Source of the DNA: a virus | Reading direction: 5' to 3' (one strand) | Virus record (IMG/VR): IMGVR_UViG_3300035671_000001 | Span: 18,506-82,505 of that record | Length of the DNA: 64,000 nt | Shown: one piece after another, positions 2,113-6,274 of the stretch | Position numbering within the stretch: position 1 is the stretch's first letter | Layout of the letters: each line of letters starts with the position of its first letter | Notes under the pieces: generated by a model | Told to the model about the DNA's origin: nothing | Database searches by the model: none | What the model saw: the letters and a program-made list of their open reading frames with translations, nothing else | Made by a program: the position numbers and the translations under genes

Positions 2113-3204
2113 ATGGCAAAACGTCCTACTCATAAGAAGTGTCGGCAGTGCGGCGAATGGTTCATGCTCGGTAAGTACGAGCGCCTCACGCGGAAGTTCT
2201 GCACTTATAGCTGCGCGTCCACACATCGCAACGCGCAGCCGAAGTGGAAAAAGCGTCAGAGTAAACTGATGAAAAAGTTGGCGACGCCGGAAGTCATGCG
2301 CGAACGCTCGCTCAAGATGTGGCGTGATCCTGCCATGCGTGCTCACCTGTCGGAGAAATCACGACAGCAGGCCAACACCAAAGAGCATCACGCCTGGATG
2401 ATAGAGCACAATAAGAAACTGTGGACGGCTCCAGAGTACGCCGAATTTCGACAGCAGCACAGTGAGCGCACTCGCAAGACGGCCAAGAAACAATGGGATG
2501 ATCCGGCGTTTCGCGAGAAGATTAGTGCCTTGACGACCGAGGCGAATAAGAAGCGCTGGGCCGATCCGGAATACAAAAAGCGAGTCGGCTTCAAGATCCG
2601 TATCGCATTCGCTCAGCCGTTGTCAAAAGCAAAGCGTTCAAAGAGTTCACGCAAACAGATGATGAGACCGGAGCAGCGAACGCGGATAAGTAAGCTATCG
2701 AAAGAGCTGTGGCAGAATCCGGAGTACCGCGCCCTCGTAACCGAAAGCAGCCGAGCTGCAGCAATCAGGAATTATCGCAATCCATTTTACCGAGTAAAGA
2801 AACTTGCGGCGTTACGAAAATGGGTGCAGTCGCCAGAAGGCCGCGCACAGATGTCCGAACTCAATAAGAAACGTTGGGAGGACCCGGAATATCGTGCGCG
2901 GCAAAAAGCTCTATGGACGCCAGAAAAGAGCGCCGCGCTAAGTGAACTGAATAGAAAACGATGGGCTGATCCCAAGTTCAAAAAGCGCGTGGCAAAGAAG
3001 ATTAGTAAGGCGAGACTCGAGAACACCAAGACACTCAGTGAGCAGAGCGAGCGAAGCAAAAAGCAATGGGCCGATCCAGAATTTAAGGCGCGTGTGAGTA
3101 AAAAAATCAGTAAGGGAAAGCGAGCCAAAAAAAAAAACGAGAACACCATCCAAGTTGAGCGAGCCACCAGAACTGAGAGTACCCGAAAAGGCGAGCGAGC
3201 CTAG
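2113..3204 (+). CDS. Zn-finger plus basic helical-repeat (NUMOD3-like, KxWxDPE[YF]R) putative DNA-binding protein
   Basis: N-terminal CRQC...FCTYSC motif; about 9 WxDPxxR/K repeats; no nuclease motif seen; the 3' end runs into the repeat array. Confidence 0.65.
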   Translation: MAKRPTHKKCRQCGEWFMLGKYERLTRKFCTYSCASTHRNAQPKWKKRQSKLMKKLATPEVMRERSLKMWRDPAMRAHLSEKSRQQANTKEHHAWMIEHNKKLWTAPEYAEFRQQHSERTRKTAKKQWDDPAFREKISALTTEANKKRWADPEYKKRVGFKIRIAFAQPLSKAKRSKSSRKQMMRPEQRTRISKLSKELWQNPEYRALVTESSRAAAIRNYRNPFYRVKKLAALRKWVQSPEGRAQMSELNKKRWEDPEYRARQKALWTPEKSAALSELNRKRWADPKFKKRVAKKISKARLENTKTLSEQSERSKKQWADPEFKARVSKKISKGKRAKKKNENTIQVERATRTESTRKGERA

Positions 3205-3562
3205 CAGACGGACAGCATCATAATAGACGAGCGAGCCAAGATTAGTGAGAGCACCACGTCCGACGAGCGAGCCACGAAAGTTGAGAGCACCAAAGTGGCA
3301 GAGCGTAGCCAGAGAAAGTGAGAGCACCATTTTGAGCGAGCGAGCCATGTCCTGTGAGAGTACCAGACAAGACGAGCGTTAAGCCACTTGAAGCGAGAGT
3401 ACCAAAACGAGTGAGCGAGCCAAGCGCGAAGAGAGCACCATGCAAGTTGAGCGAGCCATGTCCCATGAGAGTACCAAAAATCAGGAGCGAGCCAAGCGAG
3501 CCGAGAGCACCAATAGTCAAGAGCGAGCCATAACTACAGTGAGTACCAGAACAGGAGAGCGA
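3118..3562 (+). ncRNA. TIGR-like dual-spacer guide array, upstream block (12 units)
   Basis: 36-nt period GAGCGAGCC-N9-GAGAGYACC-N9; spacers nearly always start with A (CCA motif). Confidence 0.9.
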
Positions 3563-3564
3563 AA

Positions 3565-4353
3565 ATGACAGACGTTGCAGCAGTCCAAGCCTTAACGCGT
3601 GATCTACGAAACGCCGCCGCGACAATGACGCGAGACGAAGCGCGATTCCTCGTTGATGCGTATTACATCATTCAAGACGATCGGAAGCGATCGGCCAACC
3701 AAGTGCGTTCTATGAAGGAGGAGCCACACGCCGTCCTTCAGTGGTTCTTCGATCAGAACGTCACGCTTGAAGGACAAATCAAGCGCGCCCTCGATTCGTA
3801 TTCCGACGCCAGCAAGATCGGCCTTTGGATGAAAGGAGTTTACGGAATCGGCCCGGTGATCGCGGCCGGGCTGCTCGCGCATATTGAGATCGACGACAGC
3901 ACTCCAACCGTGGGTCACATCTGGCGCTTTGCCGGACTTGATCCGACGGTGAAGTGGGAGAAGGGCCAGAAGCGGCCGTGGAATACTCAGCTCAAGACGC
4001 TGTGCTGGCACATCGGGCAGAGCTTCATGAAATTCTCAGGCCGCGACGAATGCCGCTATGGTAAGTTCTACCTTGCCCGGAAAAAGTTTGAAGTCGAGCG
4101 CAACGACTCAGGCGAGAACGCTGAGCTGGCGAAGACGCTGTTGCCGAAGTTCAACAAGAGCACCGACGCATACAAACATCTGCTCGGTGGGAAGCTGCCG
4201 CCGGCACAGATCGATGGGCGTGCACGTCGGTGGGCGGTGAAGCTTTTTCTCTCCCACATGCATGCTCAGTGGTTTAGATTGGAATTGGGCAAGGAGCCCC
4301 CCAAGCCATACGCGATTACGCAGCTCGGACATGGACACATGATTGAGCCATAG
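3565..4353 (+). CDS. tasA: TasA-like Nop-domain RNA-guided DNA-binding protein (related to the IS110 C-terminal domain, no nuclease)
   Basis: Predicted helical N-terminus; GIGPVIAAGLL and IWRFAGLDP motifs; ARRWAVKLFL; no DEDD/RuvC domain, no catalytic SG after GLDP, no HNH; embedded in a 36-nt dual-repeat array. Confidence 0.82.
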   Translation: MTDVAAVQALTRDLRNAAATMTRDEARFLVDAYYIIQDDRKRSANQVRSMKEEPHAVLQWFFDQNVTLEGQIKRALDSYSDASKIGLWMKGVYGIGPVIAAGLLAHIEIDDSTPTVGHIWRFAGLDPTVKWEKGQKRPWNTQLKTLCWHIGQSFMKFSGRDECRYGKFYLARKKFEVERNDSGENAELAKTLLPKFNKSTDAYKHLLGGKLPPAQIDGRARRWAVKLFLSHMHAQWFRLELGKEPPKPYAITQLGHGHMIEP

Positions 4354-6274
4354 GGTTTGAGAGCACCATCGAAGTCGAGCGAGCCACACGGACAGAGAGC
4401 ACCACGATCATGGAGCGAGCCACGGACCTAGAGAGCACCACATAGGCGGAGCGAGCCAGAACACTTGAGAGCATCACGCGTGAGGAGCGAGCCAGACGAG
4501 ACGAGAGCATCATCCTCGATGAGCGAGCCACTGCGGCTGACTGTACCTATAGGAACGAGCGAGCCATTCTACACGAGAGTACCAAGCGAGCCGAGCGTTT
4601 CAGCCATGTAGAACGACAGCATCAGAGCCGAAGAGCGAGCCATGGGAGATGAGAGCACCACGTTGACAAAGCAAGCCATGATCTTTGAGAGCACCAAGCG
4701 AGCCGAGCGTTAAGCCAAGGAGCAAGAGTGCACCACATTGTGCGAGCGAGCCAGAAAACGCGAGAGTACCAAGGCTAGAGAGCGAGCCAAACCGTAAGAG
4801 AGCACCACAAAAAGCGAGCGAGCCGAGGGAGCTGAGAGTACCATATATGAGGAGCGAGCCATAAAGCGCGAGAGCACCATCCTCGACGTGCGAGCCATGC
4901 TCACTGAGAGTACCAAAATGAGCGAGCGAGCCAGAGCCCAAGAGAGCACCATCTGCTCAGAGCGTAGCCAAATGAGCAGAGTCGTACCAACATAGGAGAG
5001 CGTAGCCAAGATCGACGAGCGTACCCTGTCGGAGGAGCGAGCCAAAGACGATGAGAGCACCATGGTGAATGAGCGTAGCCACAAGACAGGACAGCATCAT
5101 GCGATTTGAGCGAGCCACTTCCCAAGAGAGTACCAAGCGAGCCGTGCGAGCCATGGGTAGCGACAGCACCATATGAAGAGAGCGAGCCACCGTTGATGAG
5201 AGCGCCATGCCAAGCGAGCGAGCCACAGAACTTGCGAGTACCATGTCGTAGGAGCGAGCCAGCGGTAACGAGAGTACCATGGCGACGGAGCGAGTCATCG
5301 CCGCAGAGAGCACCACACGAAGTAAGCGAGCCAATGCGCGTCGAGAGTACCAAATAAGATGAGCGAGCCATGCAGGACGAGAGCACCATCACGCCAGAGC
5401 GCAGCCACAGCCACAGAGAGCACCATCGCTTAAGAGCGAGCCTTACCAGACGAGAGTACCCTACGATCAGAGCGAGCCAAGTCACAGGAGAGCACCAAGC
5501 AAGGAGAGCGAGCCAGGGCGAGAGAGAGCACCACTACGCGCGAGCGAGCCACGGCGATTGTGAGTACCACGAAAAATGAGCGAGCCTTGTAAGAGGAGTG
5601 CACCAAATCATATGAGCGAGCCTTCGGCCGGGTGAGTACCATTGAACATGAGCGAGCCGGAAAACGCGAGAGTACCAAAAAGCGTGAGCGAACCAATGAC
5701 GAAGAGAGTACCAAAAGGAATAAGTGAGCCAGGGTGTGAGAGAGTACCAAGCGGGCCGAGCGTAGCCATCGGCAGGGAGCGTGCCATATGATCAGAGCGC
5801 TAGCCACGTATGATGAGAGCACCAAGCGCAGTGAGCGAGCCAGTAGCCAAGGGAGCACCAAGTCGGCCGAGCGTTTCAGCCATGCTGATGGAGTTGCACC
5901 ACATCAGACGAGCGAGCCTTCCCGCCGGAGAGTACCAAGCAAGCTGAGTGAGCCGTGAAGTCTGAGAGCACCATATCGGCGGAGCGAGCCACGCCGAACG
6001 ACAGTACCAAACCCGCCGAGCGAGCCAACGCGATCGAGAGTACCAAGCTGACCGCGCGAGCCATCGACCGCGAGAGCACCATTGCGCATGAGCGAGCCAC
6101 GTCGATCGAGAGGACCAAACCACAAGAGCGAGCCAACCAGCGCGAGAGCACCAGATCGCCGGAGCGAGCCATACCGTTTGAGAGCACCACAGAAGCTGAG
6201 CGAGCCTGCGCAGTAGAGAGCACCAACGCAAGAGAGTGAGCCACCCACGATGAGAGTACCACGCCCCGTGAGCG
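4345..6274 (+). ncRNA. TIGR-like dual-spacer guide array, downstream block (53 units)
   Basis: Same alternating GAGCG(N0-4)AGCC / GAGAGYACC repeats with 9-nt variable spacers; parsed unit by unit. Confidence 0.92.

Follow-up and report, generated by a model that had tools for sequence, protein, structure and literature searches.

How does a virus make use of dozens of different guides arrayed around a single RNA-binding protein that has no nuclease of its own, and against what are these guides directed? The question is posed by a locus in IMG/VR virus record IMGVR_UViG_3300035671_000001, one contig of 82,505 bases (58.9% G+C) from a soil metagenome, of which positions 18,506 to 82,505 make up the 64,000-nucleotide stretch analysed here (the window; coordinates are those of the window unless marked as genome coordinates). 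On its plus strand, at 3118-6274, direct reading and a scripted parse show two co-oriented arrays of 12 and 53 units that flank a gene for a 262-residue protein. With a probability of about 0.9, the tailed soil phage here carries a TIGR-TasA system of the dual-repeat type, a class for which the guide architecture and the repressor activity of TasA have already been published, and to this extent the locus itself is explained. The TIGR literature states the natural targets of such guides, as well as the route by which spacers are acquired, as unknown, and it is on these two points that a small set of guides nearly matching their own surroundings bears.

Architecture of the arrays

Dual-repeat TIGR-Tas loci are defined by two alternating repeats of 8-12 nucleotides (nt), spacers of about 9 nt and a unit of about 36 nt, situated beside a tas gene. 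The present locus comprises three parts:

3118-3561, plus strand: upstream TIGR array, 12 units at 3118-3556, the first of them degenerate, then a lone half edge repeat GAGCG at 3557-3561
3565-4353, plus strand: tasA, encoding a 262-residue nuclease-free Tas protein with a coiled coil, a Nop-type RNA-binding domain and a C-terminal P-Y249-x6-H256-x-H258 motif
4341-6274, plus strand: downstream TIGR array, 53 units at 4341-6269, then a terminal lone GAGCG at 6270-6274

Each unit is laid out as GAGCGAGCC (the edge repeat), nine bases (spacer A), GAGAGYACC and again nine bases (spacer B). The string GAGCGAGCC-N9-GAGAGYACC has 29 exact occurrences, all on the plus strand and all within 3157-6224, as against none across 100 dinucleotide-preserving shuffles, and Tandem Repeats Finder returns periods of 36, 72 and 108. 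A preliminary description, made from the letters alone, had proposed just such a 36-nt period of two alternating repeats, with 12 units before and 53 after a 262-residue gene, and sequence, parse and pattern count bear it out. The 9-nt spacers of that description stand as a layout and need qualification: the first spacer base is A in 56 of the 65 units for spacer A and in 60 for spacer B (82% and 96%, respectively, among the 51 canonical units, with an information content of 1.2-1.7 bits), so that the repeats are effectively 10 nt long, GAGCGAGCCA and GAGAGYACCA, and each spacer has eight variable bases. All 65 guides are distinct. Both repeats follow a pseudo-symmetric GAG-NNN-NCC-A pattern ending in box C (CCA), which suits binding by a symmetric dimer.

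Fifty-one units measure 36 nt and the other 14 measure 37-41 nt. Insertions of 1-4 nt occur in 11 edge repeats, each exactly at GAGCG^AGCC, and in none of the other repeats; the preliminary description had already placed up to four extra bases at this point. Both arrays open with a degenerate edge repeat (at 3118 and 4341) that is intact only in its ...AGCC half, and both close with GAGCG. The first edge repeat of the downstream array, GATTGAGCC, sits within the last codons of tasA, the stop codon of which falls in the first spacer A; in many relatives, the tasA stop codon overlaps the first AGCCA of the downstream array. At the other end, the first 87 nt of the upstream array overlap the end of an open reading frame (ORF) at 2113-3204. 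A Logan contig, produced by an independent assembler and probably from the source sample, is identical to the window throughout 1625-5988; owing to a break in that contig between 5988 and 6142, only one assembly underlies the number of units counted over the last 300 nt.

The variable bases of all guides at 3118-6274 contain little T on the transcribed strand (A 30, C 25, G 27, T 18%), with 52% G+C as compared with 59% for the genome. This composition suggests a constraint on the RNA and not on the targets.

The Tas protein

Is the gene between the arrays indeed a tas gene? As a single sequence searched against solved structures (phmmer, PDB), its product finds TasR (9mty, E 1.5e-10), TasH (21kl, E 5.8e-07) and IS621 (E 0.017), and a profile of 35 relatives finds TasR with E 1.4e-19 and TasH with E 1e-12. 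An AlphaFold model built on an alignment of relatives (mean predicted local distance difference test score 88) points to the same family: ten TasH/TasR chains lead the Foldseek matches (probability 1.0, template modelling score 0.55-0.67), followed by IS621 and ISCro4, and VIA-align places model residues 22-262 on TasR 110-318 with Z 17.1 and residues 17-262 on TasH 66-302 with Z 16.7. The IS110-type ISCro4 follows with Z 12.6 over its RNA-binding part only, and the remaining matches are generic helical hairpins (Z <=8). Since the alignments begin at residue 110 of TasR and residue 66 of TasH, the nuclease part of these two proteins has no counterpart in TasA, and Pfam, searched with E up to 1, gave no HNH, RuvC, DEDD_Tnp_IS110 or Nop match. 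The Tas identity, the missing RuvC/HNH nuclease and the kinship with IS110 enzymes, all anticipated in the preliminary description, are supported by sequence (E in the range of 1e-10 to 1e-19 for TasR/TasH) and by fold (Z about 17). Among the Nop, Transposase_20 and Tas models with which it had suggested comparing 3565-4353, the Tas proteins came out positive in both sequence and structure, Transposase_20 reached only a sub-threshold match (39 residues, 20.6 bits against a cut-off of 21.3) and the Pfam Nop model gave none.

TasA belongs to a large family (one search yielded 5867 homologues, a second 2744 cluster representatives), and PHROG 4285 (labelled 'transposase') matches it with E 2.5e-44. 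If the relatives have database names at all, these read 'transposase IS116/IS110/IS902'. The closest protein relatives are 70-72% identical, and the sole cluster mate is an identical protein, probably from the same sample. DNA and protein searches of an annotated phage collection found no match, and the C-terminal 61 residues alone found nothing in the PDB. The public protein record of tasA begins at Met21 (242 residues; 3625 instead of 3565); the 262-residue form is the better call, because relatives align from residues 1-7 and a Shine-Dalgarno sequence precedes the first ATG. Many cluster representatives (P0121-P0270) are 300-450 residues long and match TasA in two to three stretches with a break near residues 133-136, which looks like a common insertion point, perhaps occupied by the intragenic guide units of Xu et al.

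Could the locus nevertheless be something else? One might think of a transposase of the IS110 family and its bridge RNA, of a CRISPR array or of a protein-coding sequence built from 12-residue repeats. The transposase label of the relatives and the weak Transposase_20 match invite the first of these thoughts, whereas the short, sub-threshold extent of that match, the lack of any DEDD or RuvC domain, the restriction of the structural match to the RNA-binding part and the higher rank of Tas proteins over IS110 enzymes as structural matches rule such a transposase out. A CRISPR array is incompatible with two different 10-nt repeats, 8-nt spacers and an enclosed gene that is tasA; the other genes annotated were ordinary phage genes. 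The repeat protein finds some encouragement in a period divisible by three and in ORFs of up to 194 residues that cross the array on both strands, and fails on the insertions of 1, 2 and 4 nt, which break every frame, and on conservation that runs in 10-nt blocks and not in codon phase. Taken together, these non-TIGR explanations are highly improbable.

Guide processing and mode of action

How would such a system work? By analogy with its relatives, the arrays would be transcribed together with tasA, and TasA dimers would bind the precursor, which would be cut in the middle of the edge repeat at GAGCG^AGCC, probably by TasA itself via Y249 and H256. Cutting would yield 36-nt guide RNAs (tigRNAs), with AGCC-A-N8-GAGAGYACC-A-N8-GAGCG as the predicted mature form, each of which would bring a TasA dimer to double-stranded DNA reading spacer A followed by the reverse complement of spacer B, with one spacer for each strand. 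With no nuclease, the outcome would be a sequence-specific roadblock or repression and not cleavage.

The published systems provide the template for these steps. Tas proteins bind 36-nt tigRNAs, the spacer A of which pairs with one strand and the spacer B with the other strand of the adjacent stretch (PMC12045711), and targeting requires no flanking motif. The order of spacer A and then the reverse complement of spacer B, used for all target predictions below, was derived from the published 8-nt 3' overhangs, with the reversed order serving as control. TasA and nuclease-dead TasR bring about guide-dependent, reversible transcriptional repression (10.64898/2026.09.09.750476), and DNA binding of this kind, together with the reversible repression, is the only activity experimentally shown for the nuclease-less class (10.64898/2026.09.09.750476). 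How nuclease-less systems act, which the preliminary description had considered open, is therefore no longer fully so.

The assignment of GAGCG^AGCC as the processing point, also made in that description, is well founded because published tigRNAs begin and end in the middle of the edge repeat (PMC12045711), and it fits the present locus because both arrays end in GAGCG, both start with only the ...AGCC half and all length variation is found at this point. What makes the cut? SpTasH matures its own guides by means of Y289 and H296 on a C-terminal loop (PMC13421893), and TasA ends in P-Y249-AITQLG-H256-G-H258-MIEP. The structural alignment of the model with TasH ends at 262 = 302, and an ungapped reading of the last 14 residues would pair Y249 with Y289 and H256 with H296. 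All 35 relatives compared have H256 and 34 of them H258; position 249 is occupied by Y in 27 and by F in eight. By analogy with SpTasH, TasA likely processes its own guides via Y249/H256.

Processing may also touch on the expression of tasA itself, given the following element:

3552-3564, plus strand: ribosome-binding stretch of tasA, AGGAGAGCGAAA, in which GGAG shares bases with both the last spacer B and the closing half edge repeat

The Shine-Dalgarno GGAG lies 3 nt 5' of the tasA ATG, and its overlap with GAGCG recurs in several related loci with upstream arrays (six inspected: L016, L039, L048, L083, L093 and L103). Cleavage at the last upstream half repeat would split the ribosome-binding site from the start codon, and it is possible that TasA synthesis is braked in this way.

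Several observations weigh against the reading of the locus as a working, self-processing TasA repressor with a Nop fold. Expression, processing and DNA binding by this TasA are predicted from relatives, and the repressor experiments concern MbTasA, a TasA described as distinct. A look for RNA sequencing runs that include the locus found none. The F at position 249 in eight of the 35 relatives weakens the catalytic dyad. Nop5/Nop56 chains were absent among the matches listed by Foldseek or VIA-align and Pfam's own Nop model is silent, so the 'Nop fold' of TasA draws on its likeness to Tas structures, which their authors assigned to that fold. Finally, the phage genome outside the masked array units has no site with 0-1 mismatches for any guide.

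Relation to known systems

The system compared here by description, FpTIGR of Flavonifractor plautii (dual-repeat TIGR-TasA; Faure et al. 2025, PMC12045711), resembles the present one in its solo Nop-type Tas protein, and FpTIGR-type systems share with it the arrays on one or both sides of the gene, the truncated edge repeats at array ends and the frequent carriage by phages. They differ in scale: published dual-repeat TIGR-TasA arrays have 'most often 5 to 15' units (PMC12045711), as compared with 65 at this locus and about 96 genome-wide, and the present genome has arrays at eight more places, as far as 17 kb from tasA, with eight variable bases in each spacer. MbTasA, PateTasR and CsTasR (Xu et al. 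2026, bioRxiv preprint 10.64898/2026.09.09.750476) are likewise nuclease-free or nuclease-dead Tas proteins; PateTasR and CsTasR, however, use stem-loop tigRNAs and have no C-terminal Y/H processing loop, whereas dual-repeat guides and the Y-x6-H spacing are kept here.

SpTIGR-TasH of Salicola phage CGphi29 (PDB 9w03, 9w04, 21kl; PMC13421893) is also phage-borne and dual-repeat, with 8 + 8 variable bases. It ranks first or joint first in structural similarity (Z 16.7 across residues 17-262), and the Tyr and His of Y289/H296 are seven residues apart, as are those of Y249/H256. Unlike TasA, which starts about 20 residues before the coiled coil, SpTasH has an N-terminal HNH domain and cuts both strands. 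By sequence, TaTasR (9MTY) is the closest of the solved structures (profile E 1.4e-19), and its fold matches with Z 17.1; box C (CCA) ends both of its repeats, as here. By contrast, it carries an N-terminal RuvC domain (residues 1 to about 105), and its repeats start with UG (box D) instead of GAG. IS110 bridge-RNA recombinases (IS621, 8wt6; ISCro4, 9t56) share the RNA-binding domain (Z 12.6, weak Transposase_20), which is why databases call the relatives of TasA transposases, and differ from the present system in that here there is no DEDD domain, no single bridge RNA and no transposon ends, but many-guide arrays instead.

Guides dispersed over the phage genome

A profile of the 36-nt unit detects about 31 further units at eight other sites (genome 5.3-32.9 kb, up to 17 kb from tasA), including an opposite-strand array of ten units and three solitary units, which brings the genome to about 96 guides with one tas gene only. 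Outside the part already described, they lie as follows:

14337-14372, plus strand: solitary 36-nt unit between the DUF3150-like and the DUF2201/VWA genes, followed by a strong hairpin
genome 5284-5346, 6326-6460, 8550-8576, 12452-12804 and 15992-16054 (all in L183, genome 1-18505): dispersed units
genome 14803-14829 and 16822-17172 (L183), minus strand: dispersed units

About 30 units outside the window sit between early genes, and several would escape a survey restricted to within 10 kb of tas. Two guides of the minus-strand array (L183:16966-17064) recur in the main array at 5955-6161, one identical and one with 1 of 16 bases changed; they stand in opposite order, and there has therefore been no simple block duplication.

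Relatives offer a measure of how unusual this is. Five related phage genomes carry arrays at two to six sites on both strands, with 36, 39, 31, 38 and 20 matches to the common pattern as against 72 here, and among the 114 related loci fetched the unit count near tasA is highest here, the others reaching 41-53 by the same measure. The 65-unit array is large, not exceptional. Repeats beside tasA in related loci are the same as here, and no neighbour gene is conserved beside tasA in the 114 loci; a helicase turns up in 16 of them, which is no surprise in a replication module.

Guides that nearly match a neighbouring gene

What, then, do these guides recognise? Counting sites with <=3 mismatches in the 16-nt core, the target lying outside units, three guides have a near-target within 100 nt of their own unit and four within 250 nt (distances 41-193 nt):

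unit 4386-4412, plus strand (second downstream unit); site 4329-4346: last codons of tasA, 15 of 18 positions matching, both internal mismatches silent third-codon changes
solitary unit at 14341; site 14239-14256: DUF3150-like gene, upstream of the unit
solitary unit at genome 8550; site at genome 8452-8469: PDDEXK exonuclease gene
unit at genome 12742; site at genome 12960-12977: next ORF downstream

Random reassignment of guides to positions gives means of 0.059 (100 nt) and 0.178 (250 nt), none of 5000 permutations reaching the observed numbers, and the same test with reversed geometry gives 0. The gene matches extend over 13-15 of 18 positions, and nine of their ten internal mismatches fall on third codon positions with the amino acid kept (binomial P 3.6e-4 for at least nine of ten), the tenth replacing Met by Leu. 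Relatives of two of the neighbour genes carry the codons of the guide (AAC, GAG) and its residue (ATG, Met) at the homologous place. The four guides thus correspond to a different version of the neighbouring gene, distinguished by silent sites. SpTasH is sensitive to mismatches, with adjacent double mismatches abolishing activity (10.64898/2026.08.11.744272), and because it barely tolerates them the resident copies are probably unbound.

Does the cognate version exist elsewhere? The closest relatives available show 59-76% protein identity. Exact 16-mers of the four guides gave 6, 22, 21 and 4 matches in IMG/VR, none of them in a homologous gene; no exact target occurs in the DUF3150-like homologues (10 loci, metagenomes) or in the PDDEXK homologue (one locus), and the guide directed at the tasA end finds no perfect counterpart where the tasA genes of 114 relatives end. 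At the sites of interest, the single DNA run available is free of variant alleles. In the five related phage genomes (184 units), no neighbour site occurs within 250 nt.

Guides that match the junction with the next unit

A second kind of local match is found inside the arrays themselves, the clearest example being this unit:

4557-4605, plus strand: unit with the edge-repeat copy AAGCGAGCC as spacer B and with a spacer A reverse-complementary to that of the next unit; the intervening edge repeat has TTTC inserted

AAGCGAGCC is the edge repeat with its obligatory leading A. Three units (starting at 4557, 4669 and 5108) have it as spacer B, and their spacers A differ from the reverse complement of the next spacer A by 2-3 of 9 positions, so that the predicted target of each reads 'edge repeat + next spacer A'. 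The resident edge repeat that follows is altered in all three cases, by a TTTC or TTA insertion or by one substitution. The same construction, with other spacers, is found in L071 (1/9 mismatch, insertion TT) and L077 (0/9 mismatches, insertion TC), and a shifted variant exists at 4924 and also in L077. The chance of <=3/9 mismatches in a reverse-complement spacer A is 0.01 per unit. Near-matches to the unit directly downstream number six in the real geometry as against one in the control, and matches inside the arrays are closer (15-17 of 18) than those in genes. As these matches follow the targeting geometry of the protein and not that of a DNA duplication, they point either to selection for targeting, with the junction protected, or to the making of units from flanking DNA. 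The insertions are not fully explained in this way, since 7-8 of the 11 inserted edge repeats have no matching guide. In L077, at 1783-1845, two adjacent units have reverse-complementary spacers A (one mismatch, 8-nt core) and a spacer B that is not an edge-repeat copy.

The remaining guides

Sites with 2-3 mismatches are as frequent genome-wide with reversed geometry or shuffled spacer pairs as with the real guides. Neither the guides of 85 related loci compared with this genome, nor the guides of this phage compared with 1.36 Mb of related loci, nor all compared with all, showed any excess over the control geometry. In the absence of an excess of matches, the bulk of the guides must therefore aim elsewhere, i.e. 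at the host or at other mobile elements. Rival or related mobile elements are the likeliest candidates for the natural targets, host genes being the other candidate.

Exclusion, self-regulation or origin?

Why should a guide spell the gene beside it in other, synonymous codons? Weapons linked to a resistant resident allele and aimed at relatives are familiar from the free-standing homing endonucleases of T-even phages. It is conceivable, although we hold the thought tentatively, that allele-specific exclusion operates here as well: the guides would aim at the version of the gene found in related phages, the resident copy would be shielded by its silent codon changes and, because this copy is kept within 200 nt of the guide, guide and resistant allele would be inherited together. 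These thoughts find support in the proximity of guide and site (0/5000 permutations, control geometry 0), in the third-codon placement of nine of the ten internal mismatches (P 3.6e-4), in the relatives of two genes that show the guide's codons or residue and in the high mismatch sensitivity of SpTasH (10.64898/2026.08.11.744272). A CRISPR precedent exists in virus-borne mini-CRISPR arrays, in which a weapon linked to a resistant allele is likewise aimed at relatives (PMC6858448); this is a functional analogy for the neighbour-matching guides only, as these arrays, like the homing endonucleases, are different molecules, and no cutting is expected here and no matching relative was found. The databases searched hold no exact target in any homologous gene, with the caveat that the closest available relatives are just 59-76% identical in protein, and the five related genomes with their 184 units lack neighbour sites; moreover, the pattern concerns only 4 of about 96 guides, and TasA, which cannot cut, would have to exclude a rival by binding. 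A second view, rather unlikely in our judgement, sees in the imperfect sites near the 3' ends of co-transcribed genes, tasA included, weak roadblocks giving negative feedback, with cleavage at the last upstream half repeat, between the Shine-Dalgarno sequence and the start codon of tasA, limiting TasA in addition. Three of the four sites do lie in the gene directly upstream of the unit and on the same strand, the Shine-Dalgarno/GAGCG overlap recurs in related upstream-array loci (six inspected) and TasA represses transcription (10.64898/2026.09.09.750476); however, two to three mismatches should block binding, judging from SpTasH, a regulatory site should stay complementary whereas the differences seen are the silent ones expected of drift or escape, and the genome-wide number of near-matches equals chance.

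Alternatively, the local matches might be footprints of unit formation, which decay over time. This explanation is also doubtful. In its favour, three phages (this one, L071 and L077) share AAGCGAGCC units with a reverse-complement spacer A at 0-3/9 mismatches, the intervening edge repeat is always altered (TTTC, TTA, TT, TC or one substitution), matches to the downstream unit number six against one in the control, and array-internal matches (15-17/18) exceed gene matches (13-15/18). Its difficulties are that no mechanism or enzyme is known, that 7-8 of 11 inserted edge repeats have no matching guide, that about 90 guides have no local match and that the same facts would fit guides aimed at rival arrays, the resident junction being protected by its insertion.

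Phage context

The genome encodes terminase, portal, tail fibre, endolysin, helicase and a RecET-like pair (PDDEXK + RecT); its source is a tailed phage, and the locus is in the early or replication part. The ORF at 2113-3204 shares its last 29 codons with the first array units; its product has a treble-clef zinc ribbon at the N-terminus and, after it, about eight copies of a W-x-D/N-P-E-Y/F-K/R motif. As a conserved partner of TasA it was rejected, having been found at 0/114 related tasA loci. Farther downstream, the gene at 14468-15928 matches PHROG 1314, labelled 'HNH endonuclease'; Pfam shows instead a DUF2201 metallopeptidase-like and a VWA-like domain, and a nuclease acting in trans was rejected on this ground. 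Together with an AAA_5 ATPase gene (12048-13061) and the DUF3150-like gene, it constitutes a MoxR/VWA-type operon.

Where might the array transcripts end? Two hairpins follow the downstream array, at about 70 and 270 nt from its 3' end, with a T run only at the second, whereas the upstream array leads into tasA and not into a terminator:

6345-6378, plus strand: G+C-rich hairpin (centroid structure) followed by UUUAA, about 70 nt past the array, missed by the terminator scan
6546-6581, plus strand: terminator-like hairpin (z -3.2) followed by five T (TTTTT)

An Rfam scan returned nothing other than a sub-threshold match after the array, at 6515-6580, to BjrC68, a Bradyrhizobiaceae small RNA (19.4 bits against a gathering score of 39); it covers the terminator-like hairpin and is probably due to chance.

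Implications

The phage contig, with its main tailed-phage modules, one TasA and about 96 different guides, is among the richest genomes compared. Its value lies in pairs of perfect and resident sequences, which differ at silent sites in four genes and, within the arrays of three phages, by bases inserted at the processing point. We would propose, as a speculative suggestion only, that TIGR units act as linked pairs of weapon and immunity able to tell near-identical phages, and even their arrays, apart. Four guides spell the neighbour gene in silent codons, and at least four more (plus two in other phages) spell the junction with the next unit as it would be without the 1-4-nt insertion at the processing point. 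The birth of new units from flanking DNA is a close alternative. On either reading, the phage would offer a first way of approaching what TIGR spacers naturally target or how they originate.

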